A DNA stretch of 64,000 bases from a virus (Duplodnaviria; Heunggongvirae; Uroviricota; Caudoviricetes): positions 1-64,000 of the IMG/VR virus record IMGVR_UViG_3300025467_000526. One strand, written 5' to 3'. Below the pieces are notes generated by a model. It worked only from the letters and a program-made list of their open reading frames with translations. It did not search any database and was not told where the DNA came from. The position numbers were made by a program, and so were the translations under genes. Numbering within the stretch: the first letter of the stretch is position 1; every line of letters starts with the position of its first letter. This document shows, in pieces, positions 2,249 through 37,971 of this stretch.

Positions 2249-3352
2249 ATGAATAAAGTTATCAAAATTGTTTCTAATCAAAAAGACAATATATTAGAAG
2301 TTCGTTGGATGGTCAATAATGTTTGCAACTATAATTGCAGGTACTGTTGGCCGGGTAGCCACGATGGCAGTTTTAAAAGTCCTGAAAACATTGATCAAAT
2401 TATTGATAATTTTGATCACATGTTTACATATTATAAAACACACTTAAACAAGACACGTTTCCATTTAAAAGTCGGGGGAGGCGAACCTACACTTTGGAAA
2501 GACTTAGGATACTTTATTGAACAACTTAAAAAAAGACACAACATATATTTTACAGTAATTTCAAATGGGTCACGTACACTACGTTGGTGGAAAGAATACG
2601 GACATTTAATAGACAATGCTACACTAAGTTATCACGTAGCAGAAGCAAATCCAGATCACATGATAGCTGTAGCAGATACGCTTTATGAATTAGGTAAGAA
2701 GACCAGCGTCAAAGTATTAATGGATCCTAACCTGTGGGATGAAAGTGTTCGTGTGTTAGAGTATATGAAGACCAGCAAACACAGTTGGTTTTTAACTGCG
2801 ACTGAAGTTATTGAACCCGAGCATGTTGCATCAAATGTGATTGAAATTGTGGACGAAAATAAAAAACGTTACACACCAGAACAACGTAGTTATTTTAAAA
2901 ATGCTTTAAAACGTATGCCTGGTTGGTCATGGATATTCAAAAATATTAAATTATTGATAGGTGGTGAAATAAAATTGTTTGAAAGTACCGCTTATTTAGA
3001 CAACGGCACTACTATTAAAGCTAGGCCAGAAACTTATATTTTGAACGGATGGAATAATTTTAAAGGATGGAGTTGTAATATTGGATTGGAAAGTGTCTAC
3101 ATACATTGGGACGGCGAAGTAGTAGGATCATGCCAGGAAACATTATATGGGTTAGATTATCGTTATAACATCTTAGACAGCAATTTTGTACAAAATTTTC
3201 ACCCAGATTTAAAACCTATTGTGTGTAATCAAAATAATTGTTTCTGCGGAACAGAAACACATATATCAAAGTTTGATCTTAGTAAGCGGGATATCAGCGG
3301 CACAGGTACAGAAGTTTCGATCACAGATGACAGGGTTATCAGGCACCACTAG
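2249..3352 (+). CDS. radical SAM enzyme, paralog family A
   Basis: CNYNCRYC (CxxxCxxC), GGGEPT motif, and a C-terminal Cys cluster GWSCNIG…IHWDGEV…C…CNQNNCFCG shared with 3266..4156 and 20891..21856. Confidence 0.7.
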   Translation: MNKVIKIVSNQKDNILEVRWMVNNVCNYNCRYCWPGSHDGSFKSPENIDQIIDNFDHMFTYYKTHLNKTRFHLKVGGGEPTLWKDLGYFIEQLKKRHNIYFTVISNGSRTLRWWKEYGHLIDNATLSYHVAEANPDHMIAVADTLYELGKKTSVKVLMDPNLWDESVRVLEYMKTSKHSWFLTATEVIEPEHVASNVIEIVDENKKRYTPEQRSYFKNALKRMPGWSWIFKNIKLLIGGEIKLFESTAYLDNGTTIKARPETYILNGWNNFKGWSCNIGLESVYIHWDGEVVGSCQETLYGLDYRYNILDSNFVQNFHPDLKPIVCNQNNCFCGTETHISKFDLSKRDISGTGTEVSITDDRVIRHH

Positions 3353-4156
3353 AGTTCCTTGATAAATGTTACCCAAACTACCGCCTACTCGGCACGTAGC
3401 ACGATGTACTTCTCCATCCCAATTTATCATTAGGCTTTCTATACCTGCGTTACATGACCAGTCTTTGTATTTGTTAAAATGCAGTTTGATAATATCATTG
3501 GCATGTATTTTCTTATCATCATCTATAACACAGTTTGCTTCTACTGTAGCTTCATATTCTTTAACCCATTCTAAGTCTTCTGCATTGTATCGCATGTCAT
3601 CGAACAAATCGTGATCACCTTGCGTCCAACGAACTCTACGAACAGCATGAGGGATATTACTTGCGGACAACGCACCTGCAATGTATCTAGTACGTTTCAT
3701 ATGGTCTTGATGTGCCATGACATGCACTAATATCTTTCCTGGGAATAGTTCTTTGGTGTTGACTATTGTATCTAATACACGTCTAACGTCATATTCCATG
3801 TGTACACTAAACACATATTGGTCAACACGTTGTTTACTATAAAATTCAAAGGGTAGCGTGCCGTTAGTTGTTACACTTATCCAACTGACTCCTTGATTCT
3901 TACAATAATTTATTAGCTCTTCAAATTTAGGATGTACAGTAGGCTCGCCACCTGTAAAACTTAAACGTATGGGTTTGTTTAATGCAACAAGTTTATCTAC
4001 AGTTGTTTTAAGAATTTCAATATCAGTATGCGGACTTGAGTTATCATGAATACTACTAGGGCAATAGCTACAATCGAAATTACAACGTTTGCCCAAATTC
4101 CATTCTATTTTAATAGTGTTTGGATGGTGCTCGTATAAACTGGTAACCTTAAACAT
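3266..4156 (-). CDS. radical SAM enzyme, paralog family A
   Basis: CNFDCSYC, FTGGEPT, and C-terminal DWSCNAG…INWDGEV…C…CDRNFCTC. Its 3' end overlaps 2249..3352 by 87 nt on the opposite strand. Confidence 0.7.
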   Translation of the reverse strand: MFKVTSLYEHHPNTIKIEWNLGKRCNFDCSYCPSSIHDNSSPHTDIEILKTTVDKLVALNKPIRLSFTGGEPTVHPKFEELINYCKNQGVSWISVTTNGTLPFEFYSKQRVDQYVFSVHMEYDVRRVLDTIVNTKELFPGKILVHVMAHQDHMKRTRYIAGALSASNIPHAVRRVRWTQGDHDLFDDMRYNAEDLEWVKEYEATVEANCVIDDDKKIHANDIIKLHFNKYKDWSCNAGIESLMINWDGEVHRATCRVGGSLGNIYQGTLVVPDNPVICDRNFCTCAADIPLTKIKL

Positions 4157-5420
4157 AATTCTTAAATTCCGGAGTTATGTCTATAAAACTTTGATTGCGT
4201 GTTACATCAAGTCTTTGATTAAAATCTATACAATCTTTCCACAAGTGACTTTCATCCTTTGCCATTAAAAAATTAATGTTGTCCTGTATTTGCCCTAGCG
4301 TATATTCCAACAGTCCGGGTGTTTCTTTTATTAGCTTAAAGTCTGCTACATGTTCTTTAATTGCCTGTAGTTTTGTAATAGCCAGTACTTGCAATTCTCT
4401 TGGCAATACTTGTGCAGATAATACATTGGGGTGTGTAACCCTATGAGTATGAAATATGATACCTAAGTCATCTAAAAAGTATTCTATTATTTTATCTAGC
4501 ACAAGTACATTGCTAACTTGTACAGTACATGCACCCACTACTCTTGTAATATTTGAAATTTTCTTTATTTCTTTGACGTTAGATATAACTTCTTGCCAAT
4601 CGCTGTTACCACGAATGTAATTGTAAACGTTGCCAATGCCGTCAAGAGAGACGTTAACGGCAACTGATCTAAAATAAGGCCAATAGTCATGAATTGTTCT
4701 TCCTTTATTAATTCCTAATGTTGTGCCATTAGTAGCATACTTTAGTTCTATTTGATGCCCGTAGGGTTTCAACATATCTAAAATTCTATAGTGCTGGGGA
4801 TCCATTAACGGTTCCCCGCCTGCAAACTCTACTCTTCTAAAATAAGGTAATAATTTTTCTAAATTATTCCACCATTCAGGATTATCTTGAAATTTATCTA
4901 AATAGGGTTTGCGTTCTAAATCATGTTGCTCTACAATAGCATACATGATATTGTTTTCTTTTTTATAAAATTCTTTAATTTCTGCCCAATCGTTCCAAGC
5001 AGTACTGTCCATAGGATGACACATACGGCATTTAAGATTACAAAGATTGTTTAGTTTAAGTTCCATTGTAGGAATCTCAAAAGGCATAGAATAATCACTA
5101 CGCATTTTTCCAACAGCATCAGGATACAGTTTAATACGTGCTTCTGGAATTTTTCCTCTCACATGACGTAACCGCAGACTTTCTACTCCTTGATCTTCTA
5201 GACTAAAACAAGGTTCACATTCAGGAGGACGATAGCCCGTAAGTACTTGTTTACGAATACGTTTCATAGTATCGTTATTCCAAATTTCTTCAAGTGATTG
5301 TTCTTGTATAAATCCAACAGGGTGACTACGACAGCAGGCACAGATAGCTCCATCCTCTCTGGTGGCTAATCCTGTAAATGGATGCATACAAAATGTTGGA
5401 GGATTAATGCTCTGCGACAT
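4149..5420 (-). CDS. radical SAM enzyme, paralog family B (N-terminal Cys-rich domain)
   Basis: CNLKCRMC, FAGGEPL, and N-terminal CMHPFTGLATREDGAICACC. Confidence 0.7.
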   Translation of the reverse strand: MSQSINPPTFCMHPFTGLATREDGAICACCRSHPVGFIQEQSLEEIWNNDTMKRIRKQVLTGYRPPECEPCFSLEDQGVESLRLRHVRGKIPEARIKLYPDAVGKMRSDYSMPFEIPTMELKLNNLCNLKCRMCHPMDSTAWNDWAEIKEFYKKENNIMYAIVEQHDLERKPYLDKFQDNPEWWNNLEKLLPYFRRVEFAGGEPLMDPQHYRILDMLKPYGHQIELKYATNGTTLGINKGRTIHDYWPYFRSVAVNVSLDGIGNVYNYIRGNSDWQEVISNVKEIKKISNITRVVGACTVQVSNVLVLDKIIEYFLDDLGIIFHTHRVTHPNVLSAQVLPRELQVLAITKLQAIKEHVADFKLIKETPGLLEYTLGQIQDNINFLMAKDESHLWKDCIDFNQRLDVTRNQSFIDITPEFKNYV

Positions 5421-6252
5421 ATCTTATTAAAGGGCTTACGCCCACAGGTTGATTATCTTTCAATGCTAGATAAATGCTTTTGGTTGGTGTTAAATTAAAA
5501 TCTTTACAAATTTTATTATACACATCTCCGTACTTTTTCCATAAGTAATCTGGCTCTAGCTGTTTAATGAAATGTAAACCAATCATGGCAGGGGCACGAA
5601 GGTTCATACTAAAGTCGTTCATTATGGTAATAGCGTCTGGGGTTGTTTCTTTAGTCCAACGTAATCCAATTCTATTCCAACCTAGTCCTAGTCCTTTACT
5701 TAAACTTATAGCGACCGACTTAATTGCTGGATGAGATACATCAAAGTCAATTCCGCGACAGCAAGTATACCAAGCGCCGTCCACATGTACACTAATACCT
5801 TTGTCTCCCGCTTCATCTAATATCTCCTTCATGTTTGCGTGTACATCTCCTGTACTAGGAAATGGCATGGCTATAATAAGAGGAATACCTTCTTTTAACA
5901 ATCCTACTTGTGTATCCCAATTGCCTAACCTGTGATGGTATCTGTAATCACCTTGCAGTATTTGAGGCTGGCATTGCATGTATATTGAATCGATAAATTG
6001 TGTACACCCATTAATAATATCTACTCGATTAAAATTATCTAAACCTGTTATATTATTAAGTTTGGATCTTAATACCCAATCAGTCATTTCTTTTTTAAAT
6101 TGTGTATATAACAAATCGCTTATTTCGTATCCCCATCTGTGAGGTAATAGCTCCTCTATTAGGGTTTCAATATGCTTATCAGATAATGGCTGCGGTCTTT
6201 CAATTTCCAAATATTCTTCTGAGTATGCCGGGGCAATTTTAAAACGATTCAT
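5404..6252 (-). CDS. PLP-dependent aminotransferase-fold protein (class I/II-like, short)
   Basis: ISLSKGLGLGWNRIGL matches the class I/II aminotransferase PLP-lysine signature (S-x-S-K-x2-G-L-x-G-x-R-I-G). An upstream VHVDGAWY resembles the DEAY motif. At 282 aa it is shorter than typical aminotransferases. Confidence 0.5.
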   Translation of the reverse strand: MNRFKIAPAYSEEYLEIERPQPLSDKHIETLIEELLPHRWGYEISDLLYTQFKKEMTDWVLRSKLNNITGLDNFNRVDIINGCTQFIDSIYMQCQPQILQGDYRYHHRLGNWDTQVGLLKEGIPLIIAMPFPSTGDVHANMKEILDEAGDKGISVHVDGAWYTCCRGIDFDVSHPAIKSVAISLSKGLGLGWNRIGLRWTKETTPDAITIMNDFSMNLRAPAMIGLHFIKQLEPDYLWKKYGDVYNKICKDFNLTPTKSIYLALKDNQPVGVSPLIRYVAEH

Positions 6253-6261
6253 GAAATATTT

Positions 6262-7707
6262 ATGTATGCACTTAATAAGGTTAAATATTTCATGGATAAA
6301 ATATTTTGGTTACAGCCGGAGGATTCTCAGTTAGGCAAGTGGCAACGTCAATTGGAAGACGTTTCAAAAAGTCATAGTTTTTGTGTACTGCCCTGGATAC
6401 ATTTGGCAACTCGTCCGAATGGCGATATGCGTATATGCTGTGTTGCAAACGCATCGGGTGCGGATACAGGCGACTATACTGTTGGCTTAGTTAAGATGGA
6501 AGATGGCAAGCCTGCTAACTTTGCACACAATTTGCCAACTGAAGCGTTCAATAACGACTATATGAAATCAGTGCGTAAGACTATGTTGGAAGGAAAAATT
6601 CCCGCAAGTTGTACCAAATGTTTTAAAGAAGAACAACAAGGTATTGCCAGTAAACGTATTTGGGAAACAGGTACATGGTTTAAAGAAGGTATAGATATCC
6701 CAGAACTTATTGCTCAAACTAAAGAGGATGGATCAGTTCCTTATAAATTACAATACTTAGATTTAAGATTGGGACATACTTGTAACTTAAAGTGTGTCAT
6801 GTGTAGTCCACACGATAGTAGTATGTGGGTACCCGAACATAAAAAAGTATTTCCAATTTTTGCCAGCCCCTTAATTAAAAAACAAATGAGTTGGGAGCAA
6901 ACAGAGTTTAACAACACATGGCATGAAAATCCCAAGTTCTGGGAAGAAGTCTACGATCAAATTCCTAACATCAAACAACTGTACTTTGCCGGGGGAGAAC
7001 CATTACTCATTAAAGAGCATCGCAGATTCTTAGAAGAGATTGTTGCTAGGGGATATGCCAATAAAATTATCTTACGATACAACACAAACGGCACCCTCAT
7101 TAATCAAGATATTATCAACCTGTGGAGTAAGTTCCTTAAAGTTAAAGTTGGATTTAGTTTGGATGGTATGGAAACTCGTGGGCATTATATTCGCTACCCG
7201 TTAGACTGGGATACCATTGTGCAAAATTTGCACACACTAGATAATGCTCCAGATAACATACAAACTAACATTGCACTTGCAGTACAGATACTAAACATCA
7301 AACACGTTCCTGATTTTATTAAATGGAAAGTTAAGAGTAACTTCAAAAAGATTAACATGGATACTAATGCGTCCGGACAAGTTATGGGAGGCGGACTAGT
7401 AGGTGTACACTTGTTATGGATTCCTACATGGTTAAGTCTGCGTGTACTTCCTAAAGAAGACAAAGCAGAAGTGCGTCAACTATTTGCAGATTTACAAGAA
7501 TGGTTATGGAAGAACTATACACAGGACAAAGAATTTTGGGAAACTAATCCTTACGGATGGAAACGTTGGGAAGGTATATTAGATTGGATGGACGCAGAGG
7601 ATCATACTAACTTGCTTCCTGACTTTAAAGAATATATAATGACTATGGATCAGCAACGTGCTACTGATTTTAAAAAGACATTTCCAGAGCTAGCTCACTT
7701 AATATGA
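6262..7707 (+). CDS. radical SAM enzyme, paralog family B
   Basis: CNLKCVMC, FAGGEPL, and N-terminal CVLPWIHLATRPNGDMRICC. The start may instead be ATG 6292, because only 9 nt separate it from the divergent gene. Confidence 0.7.
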   Translation: MYALNKVKYFMDKIFWLQPEDSQLGKWQRQLEDVSKSHSFCVLPWIHLATRPNGDMRICCVANASGADTGDYTVGLVKMEDGKPANFAHNLPTEAFNNDYMKSVRKTMLEGKIPASCTKCFKEEQQGIASKRIWETGTWFKEGIDIPELIAQTKEDGSVPYKLQYLDLRLGHTCNLKCVMCSPHDSSMWVPEHKKVFPIFASPLIKKQMSWEQTEFNNTWHENPKFWEEVYDQIPNIKQLYFAGGEPLLIKEHRRFLEEIVARGYANKIILRYNTNGTLINQDIINLWSKFLKVKVGFSLDGMETRGHYIRYPLDWDTIVQNLHTLDNAPDNIQTNIALAVQILNIKHVPDFIKWKVKSNFKKINMDTNASGQVMGGGLVGVHLLWIPTWLSLRVLPKEDKAEVRQLFADLQEWLWKNYTQDKEFWETNPYGWKRWEGILDWMDAEDHTNLLPDFKEYIMTMDQQRATDFKKTFPELAHLI

Positions 7708-8375
7708 TTACTAAATTAACATGGACATGCCCAGATGGGCTTATTGAACAAGCATTAAAAGAATGTCCAGTGACAGGCGAAGGCACAGTACTAAACGAGC
7801 CAACAGGCGATTTCTTTTATGACGGTTGGAAAATCAAAGATCATTATAAAGACACTCCGTGGAAACAAGTATTAGATACATTACCTGTGACCATAGGCCA
7901 AGCACGTATTATTAAATTAGAACCTGGAGATACATATCAAGCACATGCGGATATCGACAATCGTTGGCATTTAAATTTAACCGGCGAGCAGTCATACCTT
8001 ATTGACTTAGATAAGAAAGTTATGCACGAATGTGTTAGAGATAACTGTTGGGCTTATATGGATGCAAGTTGTAGACACGTTGCTTCTAATTTTGGAGCTA
8101 GATCTCGTTTACAACTTGTAGTAAGAGAACCATTACGACGTAGTAGCCAACCTGTAGATTTAGTTTCCGTAATGATTGGACCAGCCTATGAACAACATCA
8201 GTTTAGATACAAATTTGATAACTTGGTTAGTCCTTTCTTAAATCATGCTGATAAAAATTATAAATTAGCAGATTTTGCTCATACTACATTTAGTTTGACG
8301 TTTAAATTAGAAAGAGAACTGCTTGATGAACTTAAACAGCTTCTTACCGCAGATTACAAATTAACTATTCTTTGA
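7704..8375 (+). CDS. hypothetical protein
   Basis: 223-aa ORF with an ATGA stop/start overlap with the upstream gene. No recognisable motif. Confidence 0.5.
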   Translation: MITKLTWTCPDGLIEQALKECPVTGEGTVLNEPTGDFFYDGWKIKDHYKDTPWKQVLDTLPVTIGQARIIKLEPGDTYQAHADIDNRWHLNLTGEQSYLIDLDKKVMHECVRDNCWAYMDASCRHVASNFGARSRLQLVVREPLRRSSQPVDLVSVMIGPAYEQHQFRYKFDNLVSPFLNHADKNYKLADFAHTTFSLTFKLERELLDELKQLLTADYKLTIL

Positions 8376-9374
8376 ACAAGTATTAACACAAGTAAGACAC
8401 TTTTTATCAGACCAAAGGTCTGGTAAGTTGTTCCATAAGTTATCTGTTAAGACTTCTGTAATAGGAGCATCGTATAAATTTGGAACTGTCAGTTTGTTAA
8501 GATGTTGTTTAGTTGTGTATATAGATATATTTCTAAGAGCATTGATGACTGTGATTTCAGTTAAAGGTTCTTCTACATAATCAGATCCTAAATAACTGCA
8601 TGGAAACAAGTTACCTCTACAGTCTACAAATACTTCATTTAAGTTAACACATTTAGGATCAATAACAGATTTAGCTACTACATCATCTCGTACTGCACTA
8701 TCTAATAATTTTTCTAAAGGTTCTGTTACTTTTGTATTTTTAGAAGGTTGTAAGTTATAGACAAACTTGTTATGATTATCAAAGACTGGAAAATTAACAA
8801 CACTATAAAACCTAGTTGTGTGTCTAAACTGTATTTGCGATACTCCTATTCCTAATAAAAATTTTTCAAGTTCTTCTACATCATCCTCGTTGTGTGCAAA
8901 CACAAGACTGTTTATATTTGCTTTACCGCCAGCCGCAACAAACGCTTTGATATTTTCTATAACTTTATCAAAATCTGTATTACGTCTATACAGCTCGTGC
9001 TTGCCTTTAAATCCGTCTACTGCAAAAGTAACTTCGTTTATATATTGTGCTAACTCTGCCCACCATTCAGGTTTACGTAAACTACCGTTGGTATGCATAG
9101 CCGAATAGATATCAGGATTTGACTCTTTGATATATTTGTAAATCTCAAGGCAATCTGTAGCAAATGCCGGATCACCGTAATTACCTGAACTATAAAAGTT
9201 AGTAAGTGTTTGTAAAAACTCCGGTGGAAACCATTGCTTAAAATCTTCAATACCAATTTCAGTATTTTTAATAAATGGACGAGTAGAGTACCCGTTATGA
9301 TTGCGGGCACACATAGGACAAGCGGCTTGGCACTTGTCTGTCAGTTCTATATGTAGTCTTTTAACTTTATACAA
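8361..9374 (-). CDS. radical SAM enzyme, paralog family C (SPASM/twitch-like C-terminal Cys cluster)
   Basis: CQAACPMC, GNYGDP, and C-terminal C…CRGNLFPC…CLTCVNTC. Paralogous to 19887..20903 (shared WWAELA…DG…LYR block). The ORF track begins at 9407. I prefer a TTG start at 9374, which aligns with the paralog N-terminus (MYKLTDI vs LYKVKRL) and reduces the overlap with the upstream gene to 8 nt. Confidence 0.6.
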   Translation of the reverse strand: MYKVKRLHIELTDKCQAACPMCARNHNGYSTRPFIKNTEIGIEDFKQWFPPEFLQTLTNFYSSGNYGDPAFATDCLEIYKYIKESNPDIYSAMHTNGSLRKPEWWAELAQYINEVTFAVDGFKGKHELYRRNTDFDKVIENIKAFVAAGGKANINSLVFAHNEDDVEELEKFLLGIGVSQIQFRHTTRFYSVVNFPVFDNHNKFVYNLQPSKNTKVTEPLEKLLDSAVRDDVVAKSVIDPKCVNLNEVFVDCRGNLFPCSYLGSDYVEEPLTEITVINALRNISIYTTKQHLNKLTVPNLYDAPITEVLTDNLWNNLPDLWSDKKCLTCVNTCSKNS

Positions 9375-10599
9375 TCCAGTCTCCTGCTTGATGCCAGCTT
9401 GGCACATTCAACTCCGATAAAGGAATTAGTTGCATACCTTGTTTAAAATTAGGAGCAAACGCAAATCCAGTTGCGGCTCTATCACAAAAGCAAACGTATG
9501 CGTTTGGTATATGGTTATTAATCTTTTCAAGGATTTGATTTTCTTTGTATAGTCTATACGTAAGAGGAGCAAACGCCATAGTGCCTTCATAGCAAAATAT
9601 ATTTGATAAATTTATCATTGTAGTTTGATTAGGATCTAAAAAACTTATATCAACAGTTTGTCCAAGTAAATCTAGTAATATAAATTCGTATGTAATATTA
9701 GGACGTTGTATTGAATGTTCTTTCCAATAGTCTAATGCACGTTGATTATAATCGTACAAAAATACTTTAACAGGATCTGTCATATGTAAATGATCAATCC
9801 ACCATGTACCGCTAGCGGGTGTAAACAACTGAGTTATTGTTCCTTTTAATTCCAGAGATTCTTCTGGAATAAATTCATTGCTACTGGTATGCACAAAGGT
9901 ACTAGAACAATAGTGTTGTCTATAGTATAACCATTCAGATTCTTTTAAAAAATCTTTGTAGCTTTCTGGATAATAATGTTTTTTATTTTTTCGAATTTCA
10001 TTATTAAACACAAGGATAGGAATGTTGTTTTCAAGTGCAACTGAAATTATATGCCATCCATGTGCTTTATGATTATATTGCGATTCGGTATTTCCTGCGT
10101 TTATCCAAGTTGGTGTGTAATCATCGTGTATGTTTTGAAGGCTACGTACAGGTTTCACTTGTATATGTTTACTACCAAGTTCTTGTTGTCCAACAGCTGG
10201 ACATCCTAATCTTTTGTAGACATCTAAATTAATAATGTAGCATTGATGATGCAGTTCATAATATGCATCTCCTCTATCCAATACATGCCCGGCAACTATA
10301 AATTCTGTTTTAACTAGTTCCTTAACATTATCAAAAAAACTTTCGCCGTTAATAAACTCTGTACCTGGCGAATACACAACGGCATATTTGTATCTAGATT
10401 GTACAGCATAATTTATTATTTCATCTTCATAATGGGATACTAGTACATCGAACCCTTTAGTTGTTATATTGCTTATAGTGTAATCTGCAATATTTTTAAT
10501 AACTTCTCTAATTGATAATGGATGATAGGTGTGGATGTTATCTACACAACAAAACACTATTTCATTATTATGTTTAGATTTAAATTTAGTTACGCTCAT
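9367..10599 (-). CDS. hypothetical protein
   Basis: 410-aa ORF in an operon-like overlap chain. No motif recognised. Confidence 0.5.
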   Translation of the reverse strand: MSVTKFKSKHNNEIVFCCVDNIHTYHPLSIREVIKNIADYTISNITTKGFDVLVSHYEDEIINYAVQSRYKYAVVYSPGTEFINGESFFDNVKELVKTEFIVAGHVLDRGDAYYELHHQCYIINLDVYKRLGCPAVGQQELGSKHIQVKPVRSLQNIHDDYTPTWINAGNTESQYNHKAHGWHIISVALENNIPILVFNNEIRKNKKHYYPESYKDFLKESEWLYYRQHYCSSTFVHTSSNEFIPEESLELKGTITQLFTPASGTWWIDHLHMTDPVKVFLYDYNQRALDYWKEHSIQRPNITYEFILLDLLGQTVDISFLDPNQTTMINLSNIFCYEGTMAFAPLTYRLYKENQILEKINNHIPNAYVCFCDRAATGFAFAPNFKQGMQLIPLSELNVPSWHQAGDWIV

Positions 10600-11296
10600 A
10601 ACTTCTTACTAGTAATTCGCAAAACTCCTGTCTACGACTTCCTGTAATTCCATGTATAATTAAATGTGTTCTTGGAGTAGAACTATTGTTGATAACAGAA
10701 TGATAGTTGCTAATATTAACTAAAATAATTTTTCCTTCTTTCCAAGGAACTGTACCTTTATCTTTTAACGTCATATAACATTCTGCTGGATGTATAATAG
10801 CAATGTTTATAGGTAACAATATTTCCAACGGATCAAATGAAGAAGGCATACTGGTCAAATCAAAATCACAATGCGGAGCAATATTCCCTCCTGCACTAAC
10901 TTCCATGAAGCGTACACGAGCTAATTTTTCAAAAGGAAATTTTTCACAAAACTCTTTTATACTAGGAGTTAACGGACTAATACTAGTCCACTGGTATTCT
11001 TCCTTATCAACATAGTGATCCCATGTTTTTGTTTTATCAACGTCTATTCCATGTATACAACAACTACGCCATCCATTATGTGATTCTAAATCTGTATCTC
11101 TGTGCGGAACTAGGTACTGAGAACAAGACTGTGCTTCTTTTTGCCACTCGGTAATATCAAATGTTAAATCTAATTCTATCCATGCAGAATTTAATAAGAT
11201 CCATTGTGCTTGTTGATCAATAGTCAAACCATTAGGAATAGGTTGTTTGATCCAAGTTGCATCTTTATTATATTTGTAAAAATTTTGTGCGTTCAT
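10586..11296 (-). CDS. hypothetical protein
   Basis: 236-aa ORF whose stop overlaps the upstream gene start (ATGA). Confidence 0.45.
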   Translation of the reverse strand: MNAQNFYKYNKDATWIKQPIPNGLTIDQQAQWILLNSAWIELDLTFDITEWQKEAQSCSQYLVPHRDTDLESHNGWRSCCIHGIDVDKTKTWDHYVDKEEYQWTSISPLTPSIKEFCEKFPFEKLARVRFMEVSAGGNIAPHCDFDLTSMPSSFDPLEILLPINIAIIHPAECYMTLKDKGTVPWKEGKIILVNISNYHSVINNSSTPRTHLIIHGITGSRRQEFCELLVRSYERN

Positions 11297-12528
11297 AGGA
11301 AATCGAATAGTTTTTTATATTCTGTTTTTCTAGTAGTATCATATAGCTCTAACACTCGTGTACGTTCAGCAACCACCGCATCGAAATCTTCTGCTTGGGC
11401 AAATAAAAACTTATCTATATTTTGCAAGTAGTTGACTACATTACTATTTTCTTTAAATATTTTGTAATCAAGTTGTAACATTGTTTTTACACGGCTGACA
11501 ATTTGTTCTTTTAACTCTACTGGCAAATATGCTATAGAAAAATAAACTGGGTCTGCAACAAAATTAAAACTGATAGGCAATTTATCTTTCAAATGAGCAT
11601 AGCGTTCAAATTCTGCCATAATTGTTTCTATATCAAAAATATTAAAAATACTAAATGTTACTGAAATTTCAGTTTTAATAATATTGTTCTTTAATAAAGT
11701 TTCAAAGTTGTGTTTAAACTCGTAGAACTTTGCAGGGAATCTGATATAGTGAAATTTATCCGAATCCACGTGATCAAAACTGCAAGTAAGATATACTGAT
11801 TTAAATTGTTCTAATCTATCTATGAGTCCTTGCTCTACGCTAGATAAGTTTGTAATGATTTCAAGTTCAACTGATTTAGAATATCCTCGTTCGACTAGCT
11901 TATCTATAATCTCAAATGTAACAGGATTAATCAAAGGCTCTCCGCCCACTAATCTAATTTTATCTAAGTTTTTGAGAATAGGTTCTAAATTTTTAAAGAT
12001 TATATCGCAATTATCTTTATCAAATCTGTACTGTTGTTTTTCGTTTTTAAATTCTACTTCAATCCATTCTAGCATACTGGGTAGTTGTATATCGTTGGCC
12101 TGCCATAGTTTTATTTCTGTTTCGTGCATTGAACTAGATAACTGACAACACATGATGCATTTTAAATTACACAGATTACCTAACTTAAAATCAAACAACT
12201 TGGGAGGCAATGAATAGCTTCCATCATCTGACATATGAGCAACCATGCCGTCTATGTTTACATTCCTATTTTCATTCTTACGCATCGAATATCCATTGTC
12301 TTTTTCCATGCGCCAGCAAGAATCACAATTAGGATTTTTAACACCGTTGACTAAGTCTAATCTTAATTGTTTATAGTAGTCGCTATTCCAAACAACATCT
12401 GCCGAGTCCGTTTGAATATTTGGGCCAAAACCAAAACTATCACAGCACACTCGGTAATCTCCACTGTTTGTATTGCTCATCATAGTAAACGGCAGTACAC
12501 AAATTGTATCTTTAGAATATATCATCAA
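11293..12528 (-). CDS. radical SAM enzyme, paralog family B
   Basis: CNLKCIMC, VGGEPL, and N-terminal CVLPFTMMSNTNSGDYRVCC. Confidence 0.7.
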   Translation of the reverse strand: MMIYSKDTICVLPFTMMSNTNSGDYRVCCDSFGFGPNIQTDSADVVWNSDYYKQLRLDLVNGVKNPNCDSCWRMEKDNGYSMRKNENRNVNIDGMVAHMSDDGSYSLPPKLFDFKLGNLCNLKCIMCCQLSSSMHETEIKLWQANDIQLPSMLEWIEVEFKNEKQQYRFDKDNCDIIFKNLEPILKNLDKIRLVGGEPLINPVTFEIIDKLVERGYSKSVELEIITNLSSVEQGLIDRLEQFKSVYLTCSFDHVDSDKFHYIRFPAKFYEFKHNFETLLKNNIIKTEISVTFSIFNIFDIETIMAEFERYAHLKDKLPISFNFVADPVYFSIAYLPVELKEQIVSRVKTMLQLDYKIFKENSNVVNYLQNIDKFLFAQAEDFDAVVAERTRVLELYDTTRKTEYKKLFDFL

Positions 12529-12568
12529 CTATTTATAGTGGGTGTTAACTGCCCGATAAATATTGCCT

Positions 12569-13213: not shown

Positions 13214-13725
13214 TTAAATGGAAACCAATCGTCGATACGCTATTACTGCTTGACGGTGAGCATGTGTCCTTAAAACATACCAACAACATACCTGTTGGCA
13301 ATCCGCATTTTGTCGAAATTATGAAACAATTAGAATCTGCCAAATATGATTTTAGTTCTGTAGATTGGATCGATTATTATCCTAGTGTACATTTCGATAA
13401 CACCTGTGTCGATGAATTTAGTAAATTAGTAGACCATAAAATATGTAGAGCTTGGATTAGTCGTGTCGACCCAGGAAAAAATGCACCTTGGCATTGGGAT
13501 GTAGACGACCAAGAAACAGAGTTTTTAAAATTAGGTAAGTTAAAGAGATGGACTTGTTTTATAACTGAACCCAAAGTTGGGCATAGTTTAATTATTGGCA
13601 ATAAAGGATTTTACAATGAACCTGCTGGCACTATATATGAATGGCCTAATTACAGAGAATGGCATTGTGCCGCTAACTGTGGTATGGAGCCACAATTCTT
13701 ATTTCATTTTTTAGGATTTAAATAA
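13210..13725 (+). CDS. hypothetical protein
   Basis: 171-aa ORF with an ATGA overlap with the upstream gene. Confidence 0.45.
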   Translation: MIKWKPIVDTLLLLDGEHVSLKHTNNIPVGNPHFVEIMKQLESAKYDFSSVDWIDYYPSVHFDNTCVDEFSKLVDHKICRAWISRVDPGKNAPWHWDVDDQETEFLKLGKLKRWTCFITEPKVGHSLIIGNKGFYNEPAGTIYEWPNYREWHCAANCGMEPQFLFHFLGFK

Positions 13726-14567
13726 TCCTGTGGTATATAGTTAAAAGAAGATCTATGTAACAGACGTTTGTCTATACTTTGAAATTCTAAACGTCTGTGA
13801 ATTCCAAACACCATATCTGCAAGAACAATATCGCCATCTTGCCAATCATGCGAGTAAATATATTTGTCTTGTGTAATATGTTTTGCAAGTTTGTCAATGA
13901 TAGGTTGGCTTTGTTCTTCAGTCATGCCTTTAAAATAAAACATTTGCAAATACGGAAAGAATATTCCTTTCCTACCTTGACGGTTTTCTCTTATAATACT
14001 AGGAGTGTATTCTTCGTTTATAAACTTACCAGGCATGTGTTCTAACGCAGGAGATAATCTTTCAGCGTCGTGACCAAACACTCCTTGTAAATCTTTAATT
14101 TCATCAAATAATTCTGGAGTCAAATCATCGTATGCTAGGAAGTTATTTGTCCATTGTGTTATAGAACCCGTAGTACCTTCTATCCCTCTCAAGTACACAA
14201 TTAACTTACTTGCAGGACTTGCCGGGCCATTACAATGCCATTTTAATTCCGCCGGGTGCCCAAAGATTCCAGTCTTGCCATCTTTAACTATACGTCCGGT
14301 CACAGGAATTAATTTGCATTCACTATCAGGAATCACACACTTACCAATGGTTTCTGATTCGGGTGGTTTATCGTATGTTTCCACTTCGTGAAACAAGTTA
14401 ATAAACTTTAGTTCATCTTTCATTGTAATGTTAGTTCTAGGGATCACTACCAGGGTGTTAGAATCAAGTAGTCGACAAATTTCATTTGCATCTTCTTGAG
14501 TTGGATTTATAAGATCAATTTCGTCAACTATTACAGTCCACCCATTTTCGTGTATATGATATTTCAT
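13704..14567 (-). CDS. TauD/TfdA-family Fe(II)/2-oxoglutarate dioxygenase-like protein
   Basis: C-terminal YSHDWQDGDIVLADMVFGIHRR resembles the TauD signature (W.xGD…WDNR…HR). Length 287 aa, similar to TauD. Confidence 0.5.
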   Translation of the reverse strand: MKYHIHENGWTVIVDEIDLINPTQEDANEICRLLDSNTLVVIPRTNITMKDELKFINLFHEVETYDKPPESETIGKCVIPDSECKLIPVTGRIVKDGKTGIFGHPAELKWHCNGPASPASKLIVYLRGIEGTTGSITQWTNNFLAYDDLTPELFDEIKDLQGVFGHDAERLSPALEHMPGKFINEEYTPSIIRENRQGRKGIFFPYLQMFYFKGMTEEQSQPIIDKLAKHITQDKYIYSHDWQDGDIVLADMVFGIHRRLEFQSIDKRLLHRSSFNYIPQDYLNPKK

Positions 14568-16907: not shown

Positions 16908-17984
16908 ATGAAAATTACAAAAATACCCGGCTTAGGAAGATTCGGAATCTTTATCGATGATGTAGACTTTACTACAATGTCAGATGACCAGTGGTTAGAA
17001 ATCGGACAACTGCATTTACAAAACTTAGTTACAATCATACGAGACTGTAACATGCCTTGGGAAACTCAACCAGACTGGTGTGAAAAGTTTGGTCCCAGAC
17101 GCAGTGGAGTACGCTACCATATGGAAAAGAAGTATGGTCAACAATGGAATTGGTTATTCAAAGAAGCACAAGCAAATAATCCTATTATTAGTGAATTGGA
17201 TCGAGAACGTATACAAGCTATTGCCAAAGTACAGTATCAAACTCCAGGCGGAAAAAGTTTCATGAAAGTGAGTGGAGCCAAGGATGAACACGGTAATGCA
17301 CTTGGGATGTTTGCAGAAGGCGAATTACTATGGCATAGTAACGAATCGGGTACGCTGACATTTACTCCGGGCGTTGCATTGTTGGGTGTGCAGAACATGA
17401 TAGGATCTGCTACAGGATTTATCACAACTACTGATTATTATGAAAATGTAAGCAATGCATTTCGTAGCGAATTAGATGAAATGATACTGTTACATAGATT
17501 TATCCCGGGTGCTATTAATCCAGGTCTACGTGCAGATCAAGATGAAATCATGCATGCCAATATGTGTCCAGAAGACGATACCGAAATACCAATGACCATT
17601 TTAAGTCCAGGTGGTATCAAAGGACTGCATTATAGTATTAATACTGCTTATAGTATTAAGGGCATGAGCAAAGAATCCAGCGATGAAATATTTGCTATGA
17701 TTAACAAAGAATTATTTGTAGACAAATACATCTATGATCACTGGTATCAAAGTGATCACGACTTGTGTTTGTTTGACAACAGTATTACATTACACAGAAG
17801 ATTAGGCGATATCAAAGAACGTGTGTGCCATCGTGTCCCACATGACTACACTAAATTACATAGCAACTTTTGGCAGCCTTATAGCCAACCAGATGTTGCT
17901 GATCAATTCGAAAAAGAAATTCTTTACTATGTTGATTTATGCAAGGTTAGAGGATACAGAATGCCTGACGGAAGTTTGTCTTGA
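16908..17984 (+). CDS. TauD/TfdA-like dioxygenase-fold protein
   Basis: C-terminal HWYQSDHDLCLFDNSITLHRR matches the pattern of the TauD C-terminal motif. An earlier LWHSNES lies where HxD would be. The metal ligands are not fully canonical. Confidence 0.45.
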   Translation: MKITKIPGLGRFGIFIDDVDFTTMSDDQWLEIGQLHLQNLVTIIRDCNMPWETQPDWCEKFGPRRSGVRYHMEKKYGQQWNWLFKEAQANNPIISELDRERIQAIAKVQYQTPGGKSFMKVSGAKDEHGNALGMFAEGELLWHSNESGTLTFTPGVALLGVQNMIGSATGFITTTDYYENVSNAFRSELDEMILLHRFIPGAINPGLRADQDEIMHANMCPEDDTEIPMTILSPGGIKGLHYSINTAYSIKGMSKESSDEIFAMINKELFVDKYIYDHWYQSDHDLCLFDNSITLHRRLGDIKERVCHRVPHDYTKLHSNFWQPYSQPDVADQFEKEILYYVDLCKVRGYRMPDGSLS

Positions 17985-18592
17985 ATCCGTATGCCGTTGA
18001 AAATACATACCACGTAATTTATCACGAAACATGTGATGAGTTCGAACGTGTACGCAGTATCTGTTTAGAAGAGAATAATTGGTTACAGAAAAATTATACT
18101 CAAGAAAAATTAGTTATAGAAGATCATAGTGGTTATGTTGTAGTATATCAGAAAGAAACTAACAAACCTATTATCATGGCAGGTGCATATAATGGCATGT
18201 TTCCTTCTAACGTAGCTCGATTAGCCAACAGATTATATTTGTTTCCAGAATTTCGTTGCGGTAGACACAACATGATAGAATCTTACAAACTTCATCATGA
18301 ACGTATAGTTAAGCCTTTAATGGCTATTAACGATTACAATCTGTATGTTATCACTATGCAAAATCGTACTCGTGGAAACAAGGGGTGGTGGAGTCGTTGG
18401 AAAAAAATGATGCAAGAATCCAGCAATAATATGTGGACTGAAGCAGATGGCTATTTGCAAACATGTCCATGGCTTGTTCAAAAGTGTTGTCAAAATTTTG
18501 TTTATACAGAATTAAAAAAAGGTACATTTAAAGAATGGAACCCAAAAATTATAACCGAGGCGGAATGGCAAGTATTGCCTGAAGGTACATGA
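17981..18592 (+). CDS. hypothetical protein (probable TTG start)
   Basis: 203-aa ORF. The first in-frame ATG is far downstream, so TTG 17981, overlapping the upstream stop, is the likely start. Confidence 0.4.
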   Translation: MNPYAVENTYHVIYHETCDEFERVRSICLEENNWLQKNYTQEKLVIEDHSGYVVVYQKETNKPIIMAGAYNGMFPSNVARLANRLYLFPEFRCGRHNMIESYKLHHERIVKPLMAINDYNLYVITMQNRTRGNKGWWSRWKKMMQESSNNMWTEADGYLQTCPWLVQKCCQNFVYTELKKGTFKEWNPKIITEAEWQVLPEGT

Positions 18593-19323
18593 CATTAAAC
18601 AAAAAGTTACGAACCTTACAATTTTTAAATCTTTTCTTATCTATCGTAGGATTGTGTTATTATGGGTTTGATTACTTGTTGTTGAGTTATCTAGTTTTTG
18701 TTTTGTTATGCCCTATTGGAATTAGTGCAGGGTTACATAGATACTTTACACACAAGTCTTATAAAACATCTAAGTTCTGGGAAAGAACTATGTTGCTGTT
18801 AAGTGTATATGCTACTGTAGGTAGCAGTATAGCTTGGGTCGGTGTTCACAGAGCACATCATACATTTACCGACAAACCCTACGACCCGCATAGTCCAGCT
18901 GATGGAGTATTCAAAGCATGGACTGGTATAGGGCATACTGAAACTAAGATCCCAGTTAGTTTTGTAAAAGATCTATTAAGAGATCCGTTACATAGATTTA
19001 TACACGATAATTATTTTAAAATTTTATTGATTCCAGTAATTGCATTATTTCTGTATAGTCCAATGCTCGGAGTTTTTTTATATGCTATACCTGCAACTCT
19101 GGCGCTACAAACAACTAGCATAGTTAATGTACTAGGACACACACAAGGATATCGCAGTTACAATACTGACGATTGCAGTAGCAATAGTTGGATTGCTAAC
19201 ATTCTTAGTTTAGGAGAAGGATGGCATAATAACCATCATCATTATCCCAGCAATTTTAGTTTAACAGAACGTTGGTGGGAATGGGATTTAATTGGCGAAT
19301 TTATAGAGGCAATTCGCCTATAA
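18589..19323 (+). CDS. membrane fatty-acid (acyl-lipid/acyl-CoA delta9-type) desaturase-like protein
   Basis: Three His boxes match the stearoyl-CoA/DesC-type desaturase pattern: HRYFTH, HRAHHTF…DPHSP, and GEGWHNNHHHYP. The N-terminus is hydrophobic. Confidence 0.6.
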   Translation: MTLNKKLRTLQFLNLFLSIVGLCYYGFDYLLLSYLVFVLLCPIGISAGLHRYFTHKSYKTSKFWERTMLLLSVYATVGSSIAWVGVHRAHHTFTDKPYDPHSPADGVFKAWTGIGHTETKIPVSFVKDLLRDPLHRFIHDNYFKILLIPVIALFLYSPMLGVFLYAIPATLALQTTSIVNVLGHTQGYRSYNTDDCSSNSWIANILSLGEGWHNNHHHYPSNFSLTERWWEWDLIGEFIEAIRL

Positions 19324-30426: not shown

Positions 30427-30427
30427 T

Positions 30428-33604: not shown

Positions 33605-33636
33605 ACAAACTTATACAAATAATTATTGGAGTCTTT

Positions 33637-35784: not shown

Positions 35785-36604
35785 TTATTGGTCATGTACA
35801 AAATTTGCAGACTGGGTTCGTGGCACTAAAAAACTAAGTGCCGCTACTAGTGAAGACTGGGACGAATGGCGTACCACTGCTAAAATGCGACATAACTTTC
35901 GCTACTGGGTCGCAGAAGAATTGCTTGACAATATTCAAGGCTTTTTTCTTTACATACCGGACAGACTAAATGACATCCGTTACTACATCAACAATCGTTG
36001 GGTTAGTAAGAGTCATGCTCTTACTGCCCACCCTCGTGATATCCGCCCTGGCCGTTGGAGTGACGTTGGTAATCGTTTTCTTCCATGTTTGTTTAACGAA
36101 CTTGTGGACTTTGTTGAAATCGAACAAGCGTGGCATTATGTAATGTGGAACAGCGAAGAACAGAAGAAATATAATGTTCCCTGGTATCGCAGTGGTTGGT
36201 TACGCTGGCGTACTTGGCGTTGCCCAGAAGCAGGACTTGCTTACTTAGATTGGGCTAGTACTCTTACTAACGAAGAGTTTCTTGACGATGACCAGAAGCA
36301 CGAAGCCGTTCCAACTTTCCAAGCCAATAATGCTAAGGAAATTAAAGAGCTGTATCTTTGGTGGACTACTGTGTATCGTAATCGACCAGAACCAATGGAG
36401 GCAAGCGGCTGGAGTGCTTATTGTGAAGCCGCACGTCTAGCCAATAGTGGCCGTCTAAGTTTTGGCAAAGAAAAAAGTCCTGAGCTTGCCGAGATGAGTC
36501 GTGTTGCTATGGACAAAATGCACAAGATGGAAGAGGCTTACGAGGCCGAAGATGAAGCTATGATGATTCGTCTTATCAAAGTGCGTCAAGGCCTATGGAC
36601 TTAA
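35777..36604 (+). CDS. hypothetical Trp-rich protein
   Basis: 275-aa ORF. Confidence 0.45.
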   Translation: MRNYWSCTKFADWVRGTKKLSAATSEDWDEWRTTAKMRHNFRYWVAEELLDNIQGFFLYIPDRLNDIRYYINNRWVSKSHALTAHPRDIRPGRWSDVGNRFLPCLFNELVDFVEIEQAWHYVMWNSEEQKKYNVPWYRSGWLRWRTWRCPEAGLAYLDWASTLTNEEFLDDDQKHEAVPTFQANNAKEIKELYLWWTTVYRNRPEPMEASGWSAYCEAARLANSGRLSFGKEKSPELAEMSRVAMDKMHKMEEAYEAEDEAMMIRLIKVRQGLWT

Positions 36605-37971
36605 TTCGAAATATAAAAAAATCTGTGCAAGATAGAAAATTAAAACACGTTAAACACGACTTGGATAAGATTGGTCCAGGTATGTGTCTGGCCAAATGGA
36701 AACAAGTAACTGTACACCTGCCTACCGGTCATACCCATAGTTGCCATCATCCTAAAACTCACGTAATTCCTATTGAGGAAATTAAACGTAATCCTAGTGC
36801 ATTACACAATACAGAATATAAAAAAGAATTGCGTAAACAAATGATGACTGGTACTCGTCCTAGTGAATGTCAGTACTGCTGGAACGTAGAAGATAAGACC
36901 GATGCGTTCAGTGATAGAACATACAAAAGTGCAGACGAGTGGGCATTACCTTATTTTAAAGAAGTTATAGACGCAGGGTGGGAAAAAGATATTAATCCCA
37001 GTTATTTAGAAATTAGTTTTAGTTACGGATGTAATTTTAAATGTAGTTACTGTAGTCCAGAAATTAGCAGTAAATGGATGGAAGAAATACAACAGTTTGG
37101 CGGATACCCTACACATTTAAATTATAATCATTTAAAGATGTTTGAAGATGATCATAAAATGCCAATACCTGAAAGAGAAGAAAATCCTTATGTAGATGCG
37201 TTTTGGCAATGGTGGCCCGAATTATATCCTAATTTGCATACCTTCCGCATTACAGGCGGCGAGCCTTTAATGACTAAACATACTTTCAAAGTGTTAGACT
37301 ATATCATTGATAATCCTAATCCTAATTTAGAATTGGGCATTAACAGTAACTTAGGTGTTCCAAAAAAACTTATAGACGAATTTATTAAAAAGATAAAAGT
37401 CATACATGAGAAAAATGCTGTTAAATCTTTAACAATTTATACAAGTTGCGAAGCACAAGGAGTCCAAGCCGAATATATAAGATTTGGTTTGAACTATACC
37501 GAATGGCTTGATAACTGTAATTTATTGTTAAGCGAAAGCCCTAATACTAGATTAATTGTAATGTCAACATACAATGCATTATCAGTTAATTCTTATACAG
37601 GGTTTTTGACAGACTTTTTGGAATTAAAGAAGAAGTATGTGACTAGCAAAAGATGGGTAGGTATTGATATTCCTTATTTGCGTAATCCGGAATGGATGAC
37701 TGTTGGTATGCTTACAGAAGATTTCCTACCAATCACATTGTCAAGTTTAGAATATATGAAAGTAAACAAAGGATACTATACTGATTATGAAATTGATCGT
37801 ATGCAACGAGTATATGAACTTTTCGAATCTTTACTTGCTAGTCCGATGAAAGGTTTAGAAATTTGGAGAAGAGACTTTTACAAGTTTGTAAACGAGCACG
37901 ACAGACGCAGAGGAACCAATTTCTTACAAGCATTTCCCGAAATGGAAAAGTTCTATCAGCTATGTAAGTAG
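36595..37971 (+). CDS. radical SAM enzyme, paralog family B (4th copy, outside the island)
   Basis: CNFKCSYC, ITGGEPL, and N-terminal C…P…C spacing (GMCLAKW…HSCHHP). Confidence 0.65.
   Translation: MDLIRNIKKSVQDRKLKHVKHDLDKIGPGMCLAKWKQVTVHLPTGHTHSCHHPKTHVIPIEEIKRNPSALHNTEYKKELRKQMMTGTRPSECQYCWNVEDKTDAFSDRTYKSADEWALPYFKEVIDAGWEKDINPSYLEISFSYGCNFKCSYCSPEISSKWMEEIQQFGGYPTHLNYNHLKMFEDDHKMPIPEREENPYVDAFWQWWPELYPNLHTFRITGGEPLMTKHTFKVLDYIIDNPNPNLELGINSNLGVPKKLIDEFIKKIKVIHEKNAVKSLTIYTSCEAQGVQAEYIRFGLNYTEWLDNCNLLLSESPNTRLIVMSTYNALSVNSYTGFLTDFLELKKKYVTSKRWVGIDIPYLRNPEWMTVGMLTEDFLPITLSSLEYMKVNKGYYTDYEIDRMQRVYELFESLLASPMKGLEIWRRDFYKFVNEHDRRRGTNFLQAFPEMEKFYQLCK

Follow-up and report, generated by a model that had tools for sequence, protein, structure and literature searches.

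The window analysed here, 64,000 nt of a Caudoviricetes genome (positions 1 to 64,000 of IMG/VR record IMGVR_UViG_3300025467_000526), carries nine genes for radical S-adenosylmethionine (radical-SAM) enzymes that fall into three families, here named A, B and C. What is new is the membership of the nine in an old, multi-family tailoring cassette, one that is most likely tied to glycan modification. Large aquatic phages and Bdellovibrionota have this cassette in common, gene for gene. The most likely activity of the nine enzymes, which look like working SPASM/twitch proteins, is radical chemistry on sugars or glycans, a reading held at about even confidence.

Nine radical-SAM genes in three families

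The six frames of the window were scanned for the CX3CX2C motif in open reading frames (ORFs) of at least 80 amino acids (aa). It occurs in nine ORFs only, the same nine that had been listed in a sequence-only reading of this DNA, and the coordinates given there hold for all except the extent of C1. The nine genes are as follows.

A1, 2249..3352 (+): family A radical SAM, C-terminal twitch-like Cys cluster; PF04055 E 2.4e-13
A2, 3266..4156 (-): family A radical SAM; CX3CX2C at residues 25-32, extra Cys at 235, 255, 278, 283
B1, 4149..5420 (-): N-terminal twitch radical SAM; NF033640 329.7 bits, full length
B2, 6262..7707 (+): N-terminal twitch radical SAM, most conserved member; NF033640 402.9 bits
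C1, 8361..9407 (-): family C radical SAM, partial SPASM/twitch C-terminus; PF04055 E 7.5e-14
B3, 11293..12528 (-): N-terminal twitch radical SAM, accessory; NF033640 284.8 bits
C2, 19887..20903 (-): family C radical SAM, SPASM-type C-terminus; PF04055 and PF13186
A3, 20891..21856 (-): family A radical SAM; 13-nt overlap with C2
B4, 36595..37971 (+): divergent N-terminal twitch radical SAM, outside the main island; NF033640 334.4 bits

All nine match the Pfam Radical_SAM domain PF04055 (E 2e-6 to 4e-14), eight of them above the gathering cutoff; B4 scores 28.4 bits, slightly below the cutoff of 29.5, and passes NF033640. The three distinct homologous families proposed in the sequence-only reading were reproduced by all-vs-all BLASTP, in which A1, A2 and A3 are 22-25% identical over their full length (E 1e-16 to 1e-20), B1 to B4 are 23-27% identical (E 1e-16 to 1e-49), and C1 and C2 are 37% identical (E 1e-80). 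Matches between families are confined to the surroundings of the cluster-binding motif (E 1e-4 or worse). Family alignments were built from the ORFs of related viral loci (A, n=277; B, n=225; C, n=160). The Cys residues of CX3CX2C are conserved at 93-100%, GGEP is invariant in families A and B, and the extra, auxiliary-type Cys are conserved at 87-100% across these alignments of 160-277 homologues per family. Since the sequences otherwise share 25-85% identity, conservation this strong suggests that the enzymes work and that each has one auxiliary cluster or more, and homology implies that this would be a [4Fe-4S] cluster in every one of the nine. The full seven-Cys SPASM motif (CX9-15GX4C...CX2CX5CX3C...C) is not present; families A and B conserve four or five extra Cys. 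The earlier statement that the families carry auxiliary Cys clusters, which imply extra Fe-S centres, is borne out; the extra Cys are of the SPASM/twitch kind in every family, with SPASM matches in B1, B3 and C2 and twitch folds nearest to A2. The motifs that had been quoted for the families are also present overall, with two departures: the last Cys of the C-x-C in A3 is Ser, and B4 differs from the N-terminal family B motif. Family assignments were accepted or rejected on the curated score cutoffs of NCBIfam/TIGRFAM and Pfam, and viperin, QueE, MoaA, BlsE and the named peptide maturases were each rejected on these cutoffs.

Family B has a curated model. B1 to B4 match NF033640 (N_Twi_rSAM, cutoff 170) from model position 1-3 to 392-398 of 398, while families A and C score only 30-57 bits. 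Pfam places a SPASM domain (PF13186) at residues 11-71 of B1 and 10-72 of B3. Because of these end-to-end matches and the placement of the SPASM domain, the N-terminal CxxP...CC module can be equated with the twitch (half-SPASM) domain of NF033640; this domain is therefore not new, and defines that family. In the family alignment it reads C-x17/18-C(C)-x37-56-C-x2-C, with five N-terminal Cys conserved at 87-99% in addition to the triad. An AlphaFold2 (AF2) model of B3 (predicted local distance difference test score, pLDDT, 90.1) has C10, strands at 16-19 and 24-26, C28/29, and then C68xxC71. This order of Cys, hairpin, Cys and then CxnC, seen also in the A2 model described below, agrees with the layout described for the BtrN twitch domain. 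The description of a four-member family with an N-terminal CxxP...CC domain holds for the number of members and their common model, but the motif itself is altered in B4, which has C-x-x-K-W where the others have C-x-x-P-F/W, and C-H in place of CC, so that His stands at the second Cys; the N-terminal Cys that it does have are C31, C50, C92 and C95. No characterised member of NF033640 was found, nor any paper on its function in the literature searched, and a sequence search of the PDB with B2 gave chance antibody matches only. Family B is already curated but uncharacterised. Families A and C are uncurated, apparently twitch or partial-SPASM subfamilies: neither reaches a specific curated NCBIfam model, the best matches being generic and far under cutoff.

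Family A is predicted to be of the C-terminal twitch type. Its alignment shows the triad and four invariant C-terminal Cys (C235, C255, C278 and C283 in A2) within the motif W(S/T)CNxG...C...C-x4-C(-x-C); the column of a fifth extra Cys, C285 of A2, is 71% conserved. The corresponding cluster in A1, whose full-length identity to A2 and A3 is 22-24%, is C276, C295, C326, C331 and C333. A1 (+) and A2 (-) are convergent and their ORFs overlap by 87 nt (3266-3352), so that part of the final ~29 codons of A1 may not be genuinely coding. The AF2 model of A2 (pLDDT 80) shows C235, a beta-hairpin of strands 241-244 and 250-252, C255 and then C278x4C283, the pLDDT of this Cys-rich tail being 48-67. Foldseek comparison of the model with the PDB gave BlsE (7vob) as the best match (TM score 0.60, E 8e-9), followed by MoaA, EpeE/YydG, SkfB, SpeY and BtrN. 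Among curated models, prokaryotic viperin (NF038283) is the top NCBIfam match of A1 and A2, yet it was rejected: the scores are 51-53 bits against a cutoff of 180, and only the N-terminal third of the model is spanned. STM4011 (NF038073, cutoff 200) was likewise rejected, at 47 bits for A2 and 38 for A3. Its match to A2 is nearly full length (A2 residues 23-285 against positions 10-253 of the 278 in the model), and it is the closest curated relative of family A, which does not belong to it.

Family C seems to be of a partial SPASM/twitch type. It shows the motif CQA(A/R)CPMC, and has G-N-x-G-D-P replacing GGEP; in the 160 aligned sequences both Gly of G-x-x-G-D-P are found in 160/160, Asp in 154/160 and Pro in 158/160, and the triad and five C-terminal Cys are conserved at 89-100%. 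These five are C245, C264, C265, C321 and C325 in C2, which matches PF13186 over residues 245-325 (32.4 bits, cutoff 21.5). C1 has six extra Cys with a spacing unlike that of C2 (C253, C263, C270...C337, C340, C344). The locus of C1 had been correctly recognised, but the longest ORF (348 aa) runs from 8361 to 9407, as in the JGI gene call on public contigs, and not to 9374; the latter is an internal non-ATG start that would align with the N-terminus of C2. The best NCBIfam matches of family C are assorted SPASM maturases (47-57 bits, cutoffs 170-625), and a sequence search of the PDB with C2 gave only NifB at E 0.27; none of the PDB sequence searches brought up a close solved structure.

Distribution and origin of the cassette

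Among IMG/VR viral contigs, over 80 relatives of 56-99% identity were found for B2 and likewise for A2; one contig of 33 kb is 99% identical, and other related contigs, such as 3300017917_001123 and 3300020045_006153, are 265-353 kb in length. Distribution was counted over 160 related viral loci. A core cassette of A2, B1, the gene at 5404-6252, B2, the gene at 7704-8375, the gene at 19301-19897, a C2-type gene and A3 is present in 91-153 of them, and six of these (A2, B1, B2, A3, the C2-type gene and 19301-19897) in 118-153. B2 is found in 153/160 loci (median identity 72%), A2 in 139/160, B1 in 130/160 and A3 in 118/160 (58-86% identity). Orthologues of A1 are variable in related phages (median identity 40%). 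Accessory genes, in 2-18 of the 160 loci, are C1 (18/160; 727 homologues), B3, 9367-10599, 10586-11296, both TauD genes and the desaturase gene. In a large protein collection A2 has more than 2000 homologues, and identity is 66-85% throughout the best 120. With 24 kb as the query, megablast returned nothing from cultured-phage records, tblastn of B2 against cultured phages returned only matches of 23-30%, and PHROGs gave only weak generic radical-SAM matches. The window belongs to an abundant, uncultured lineage of large freshwater/aquatic phages.

Islands of related phages hold further tailoring genes that are not in the window. They include a radical-SAM enzyme of 546 aa with a long extension at its N-terminus (47 loci; L099:15599-17239), a protein with Zn_ribbon_HMPTM and radical-SAM domains (18 loci; L072:8810-9910), a Sulfotransfer_2 protein (13 loci), a PP-loop-like protein (69 loci) and GDSL-like proteins; additional coordinates listed for these extra genes are L127:4616-5242, L025:441-1307 and L061:3158-3931. 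Since two radical-SAM types are thereby added to the three of the window, the lineage has at least five. One unannotated N-terminal motif, D-I-x-F-I-S...N-W...F-P-x-A-K-R-V/I-H-G-V-K-G, occurs in a phage island protein of 644 aa that weakly matches GT2 (glycosyltransferase family 2; L076:3506-5440), and also in small Bdellovibrionales proteins adjoining a B2 orthologue (L162:8984-9694, L174:9187-9909). On two short contigs in metagenome-assembled genomes (MAGs) labelled as Bacteroidota there are genes at 69-79% identity to those of the window, on P0110 (Bacteroidota) to A2 and on L189 (Crocinitomicaceae) to B2, and L189 keeps the phage gene order. Both have the look of phage contigs that were binned together with a possible host. 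This hints at a Bacteroidota host, although it is with Bdellovibrionota that the phage has its gene set in common. A 2025 paper describes a new aquatic jumbo-phage lineage with Bacteroidota hosts (PMC12619734), which could not be tied to the window.

Bacterial and archaeal counterparts were collected by a profile-guided scan of one genome per species, with a single back-translated peptide (CNLKCI[MT]C) as the pattern, so that the taxon distribution is biased. It returned 80 loci, mostly from Bdellovibrionales, Bacteriovoracaceae or Oligoflexia. Orthologues of B2 (45-50% identity, 35 loci), A3 (44-50%, 27 loci) and C2 (35-41%) occur together in 25 Bdellovibrionota loci. Those of A3 and C2 lie at most 300 nt apart in 18 loci; in the phage the two genes overlap. 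Bdellovibrionota orthologues of B1 are up to 43% identical, and those of B4 (44-46%) adjoin GT2 genes. Other bacterial loci consist of arrays of up to nine family B genes together with A2-like, PLP-like (pyridoxal phosphate), cupin and 9367-10599-like genes. In four Bdellovibrionota MAGs (L166, L165, L173, L161) five to nine family B genes lie within about 20 kb, some array members being fused in tandem or to TPR repeats, a local expansion that far exceeds that of the phage.

The presence of several members per family had been taken as a sign of repeated in-genome duplication, followed by divergence toward new substrates. Other island genes are paired as paralogues as well (12563-13213/16151-16846, 24% identity; 14567-15370/15367-16221, 32%; 13704-14567/16908-17984, 27%; the first two pairs without a recognisable domain), and the bacterial sequences form a clade apart from C1 and C2, which cluster with each other. 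In families A and B, however, the window paralogues are only 22-27% identical to each other, while their own phage orthologues are 55-85% identical and bacterial relatives reach 45-50%; B2, A3 and B4 are each closer to Bdellovibrionota proteins (44-50%) than to the other members in the window (22-27%). In neighbour-joining distance trees, which carry no support values, each A and B paralogue forms a clade with its own phage orthologues and bacterial sequences, to the exclusion of the other window paralogues, and Bdellovibrionota genomes carry the same distinct subtypes besides their family B arrays. Given these separate clades and closer bacterial relatives, the A and B splits predate the phage lineage, or the genes came as a ready-made set. 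Growth of the families by repeated duplication within the genome therefore has little probability; for A and B it is not supported by the comparisons and appears largely refuted. Only C1 and C2, since they alone group together against bacteria, could stem from an old duplication in the lineage of the phage. As this case shows, a genome may hold several members of a family that did not arise by local duplication.

Possible substrates

Chemistry on sugars or glycans is suggested by three independent findings, namely GT2-rich bacterial neighbourhoods, fusions to GT2 domains and a polysaccharide locus in Bacteroidales. In the isolate Bdellovibrio sp. HCB2-146, orthologues of C2, A3, B2 and B4 (L183, 1520-4532, 9965-11341 and 13775-15163) are interleaved with six GT2-type genes (five clear GT2 matches and one weak). 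The cluster also holds an FtsJ-like methyltransferase and a DUF2142-like membrane protein, and it adjoins a fibre protein of 1355 aa that carries a Peptidase_S74 domain. About a dozen Bdellovibrionota loci of this kind contain GT2 homologues. A profile search of 1.84 billion cluster representatives gave 654 family A relatives at E <= 1e-30. Among ten long relatives that were inspected, the family A domain is fused to GT2 in four (P0254, P0341, P0306, P0389); P0341 has five GT2 domains together with TPR repeats, and P0389 adds a GNAT domain. In P0347 the fusion partner of the family A domain is sulfotransferase-like, and in P0365 it is an enzyme of the family B type. The Bacteroidales locus combines five family B genes with a carbamoyltransferase, a PglD-like sugar N-acetyltransferase and an ABC-2 permease/ATPase (exporter) pair, while Sulfotransfer_2, GDSL-like and further radical-SAM genes are added in related phage islands. 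BlsE is the nearest solved fold for both families A and B, which fits a role on sugars or glycans.

The analysis shows the family assignments, the Cys conservation, the pattern of orthology and the links to glycosyltransferases through neighbourhoods and fusions. Cluster number, substrate, reaction and target are what we infer for the nine enzymes, and the scheme would run as follows. Each enzyme would have a SAM-cleaving [4Fe-4S] site and at least one auxiliary [4Fe-4S] cluster, held in an N-terminal twitch domain in family B and a C-terminal one in families A and C. Its partners in the cassette would be the PLP-enzyme-like protein, Fe/2-oxoglutarate (2OG) oxygenases of the cupin and TauD types and the small conserved protein. 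Abstraction of a hydrogen from a sugar carbon could lead to oxidation, epimerisation, deoxygenation, decarboxylation or methylation, and the paralogues may differ in the position or the intermediate on which they act. The pathway would yield an unusual sugar that could decorate a surface structure, possibly the phage's own fibres, or remodel the host envelope. It is a rather unlikely extension of this scheme that the phages have a self-contained, multi-enzyme pathway and put a highly modified sugar on their own adhesive fibres while Bdellovibrionota use the orthologous pathway on phage-like prey-recognition fibres. If true, the decoration of attachment organelles would be a shared 'predator' trait, and this would be the first assigned chemistry for family B (NF033640), family A and family C.

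Several points weigh against sugars as the substrate. No glycosyltransferase or nucleotide-sugar synthesis gene was recognised in the island of the window, and GT2 genes lie beside the bacterial set in only about a dozen of ~40 Bdellovibrionota loci. The dominance of Bdellovibrionota may itself be exaggerated because of the single back-translated scan pattern, and the ten fusion proteins were chosen by length, not at random, and come without an organism of origin. For oxygenases of the Asp/Arg beta-hydroxylase and TauD types, sugars are a less usual substrate than proteins, peptides, lipids or small acids. None of the three families includes an enzyme of known reaction, and the nearest solved structures share the core fold only, at 12-20% identity.

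The main rival is a peptide or protein target, in which a RiPP-like peptide (ribosomally synthesised and post-translationally modified peptide), or the Thr/Ser/Gly/Asn-rich fibres of the phage, would be epimerised, cross-linked or hydroxylated. The SPASM/twitch class is most familiar for its peptide maturases, and the structural neighbours here include EpeE, SkfB, CteB and anSME; the island also has genes of the Asp/Arg beta-hydroxylase type, and it starts directly after a fibre gene with an Mtd_N domain. Fibre-like genes flank the island in 6-7 related loci, and in three Bdellovibrio loci a Peptidase_S74 fibre directly borders the cluster. The reading is weakened, however, by the absence of RiPP recognition element (RRE) domains and of precursor-sized ORFs: no RRE/PqqD-type domain is found among the Pfam matches (E <= 0.01) of any of the nine proteins, and the island genes abut or overlap, which leaves no precursor-sized gaps. 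Models of specific maturases reach 15-49 bits, with cutoffs at 265-850, and the fusion partners are glycosyltransferases rather than peptidases or transporters. On balance a peptide or protein target, fibres included, is unlikely.

Less likely than this are lipid and nucleotide targets. Radical C-H chemistry, hydroxylases and a desaturase could together alter the membrane lipids, including lipid A, of the infected cell, and the island does have a fatty-acid desaturase-family gene and PF05118 cupins, which belong to the same Asp/Arg beta-hydroxylase family as LpxO; the lipid-acting radical-SAM enzyme GDGT-MAS is also among the distant matches. Yet the desaturase is accessory (12/160 loci), the GDGT-MAS matches cover the generic core only and are far under cutoff, and no acyltransferase or lipid-carrier gene was found, so lipid remodelling is very improbable. 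Hypermodification of a nucleotide or DNA base, which would supply a modified base or nucleoside for the phage genome, is given slightly less weight still. Radical-SAM and PLP enzymes do occur in phage DNA hypermodification and 7-deazaguanine pathways, the window has a PTPS/QueD-like gene at 40821-41348, and there are weak generic matches to QueE models of PHROG and TIGRFAM. The curated QueE models (TIGR03963, TIGR03365) reach only 17-36 bits against cutoffs of 206-260, however, and among the window proteins scanned none was recognised of the kind that these pathways need, such as QueC, FolE, DpdA/TGT, or a base hydroxymethylase or kinase. The same gene set also stands in bacterial chromosomes amid glycosyltransferases and a membrane protein, which speaks against a role in phage DNA.

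Neighbouring genes and known systems

The region is densely coded on both strands. Other genes of the main island, and those next to B4, are given below.

5404..6252 (-): probable PLP-dependent (fold-type I aminotransferase-like) protein, 17-nt overlap with B1
7704..8375 (+): cupin, Asp/Arg beta-hydroxylase type; PF05118 E 5e-5; 112 viral loci
9367..10599 (-): 410-aa protein accompanying family B arrays; no Pfam match
10586..11296 (-): Asp/Arg beta-hydroxylase-like oxygenase; PF05118 E 5.7e-13
12563-13213 and 13210-13725 (+): two genes without Pfam match; 72 and 93 viral loci
13704..14567 (-): TauD-family Fe(II)/2OG dioxygenase; PF02668 E 2.7e-23
14567-15370, 15367-16221 and 16151-16846 (-): three genes without Pfam match
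16908..17984 (+): TauD-family Fe(II)/2OG dioxygenase; PF02668 E 2.5e-14
18589..19323 (+): fatty-acid desaturase-family membrane protein; PF00487 E 3e-15
19301..19897 (-): conserved 198-aa protein, 11-nt overlap with C2; 142 viral loci
35185-35784 (+): 2OG-Fe(II) oxygenase; PF13640 E 1.7e-7
35777-36604 (+): 275-aa protein without Pfam match

The protein of 5404-6252 is probably PLP-enzyme-like. D158, S183, K186 and R194 are invariant in 21 homologues, giving Ser-x-x-Lys with an Arg eight residues past the Lys, an arrangement of Asp, Ser-x-x-Lys and Arg like that in class I aminotransferases; the PDB profile search gave non-significant matches to the aminotransferases 3if2 and 3g7q (E about 0.3). 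A homologue adjoins B1-like genes in Bdellovibrionota loci. The cupin of 7704-8375 has a weak homologue in a Bdellovibrio GT2 cluster (L183), and homologues of 9367-10599 stand beside family B genes in two Bdellovibrionota loci (L161, L166), those of 10586-11296 in the array loci and those of the desaturase in two further loci (L180, L194). The 198-aa protein of 19301-19897 has no Pfam or PDB profile match, and its homologues lie beside the B2/A3/C2 set in 12 Bdellovibrionota loci; from a G-x-G-like motif one might guess at a methyltransferase. Pfam gave nothing for 9367-10599, 12563-13725, 14567-16846, 17981-18592 or 35777-36604. The ORFs 35185-35784 and 35777-36604 overlap each other and B4, which suggests that the three form one operon.

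Fibre-like proteins are encoded at 215-2194, 39292-40710, 46034-58537, 58537-58914 and 60167-62299. The first has the Mtd_N domain, and the radical-SAM island begins 55 nt after it. Three of the others (46034, 58537, 60167) have in common the N-terminal motif NDGTGD.LR.AF.K.N.NF, and one fibre-like protein, a giant of 4167 aa, has a high content of Thr, Ser, Gly and Asn; Pfam had no match for the C-terminus of the giant or for the other fibres. Further cargo comprises the PTPS/QueD-like gene mentioned above, UvdE (UV endonuclease, 41418-42443), ClpP (32212-32802), an ATP-dependent DNA ligase (33637-34956), an SPFH/Band-7 protein (29494-30426) and a DUF6492 protein (42712-43644). Enzymes that require O2 are represented by two PF05118 cupins, two TauD proteins, one 2OG-FeII_Oxy_3 protein and one desaturase; these and an Fe/Mn superoxide dismutase (43652-44209) share the window with nine oxygen-sensitive radical-SAM enzymes. 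There are no tRNA genes in the window.

Single radical-SAM genes are known in phages. In the literature searched, neither these Bdellovibrio genes nor islands of radical-SAM genes in large phages were the subject of any paper, and we found no earlier description of nine radical-SAM genes of three uncharacterised subfamilies in one phage island that is conserved in more than 100 related viral contigs. The cultured Bdellovibrio sp. HCB2-146 carries orthologues, and the Bdellovibrionota glycosyltransferase clusters, together with the fusions, provide a concrete, testable lead for three families without a known reaction.

Among characterised enzymes, the twitch proteins that act on sugars, namely BlsE (cytosylglucuronate decarboxylase, 7vob), BtrN, SpeY and AbmM, share only 12-20% identity with the phage proteins. 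The BlsE model TIGR04466 gives 17-28 bits against a cutoff of 400, and the auxiliary domain is N-terminal in family B but C-terminal in enzymes of the BlsE type, from which no reaction is transferable. The SPASM maturases and anSME (PF13186; CteB, SkfB, EpeE/YydG, anSMEcpe) are likewise among the nearest structures and have in common with the window the SPASM matches of B1, B3 and C2. They differ in having a full SPASM domain with seven Cys, against four or five conserved extra Cys here, and in the window there is neither an RRE domain nor a precursor peptide, with specific maturase models far under cutoff. With NF033640 the likeness extends end to end in B1 to B4: N-terminal half-SPASM Cys are followed by CX3CX2C and GGEP, and only B4 deviates, with C-H for CC and without C-x-x-P. 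That family is defined by sequence alone, and four diverged subtypes of it in one phage have no prior description. In deoxysugar biosynthesis, a PLP aminotransferase (DesI) is paired with a radical-SAM enzyme (DesII). The point of comparison here is that B1 overlaps the PLP-enzyme-like gene, and the pair recurs in Bdellovibrionota.

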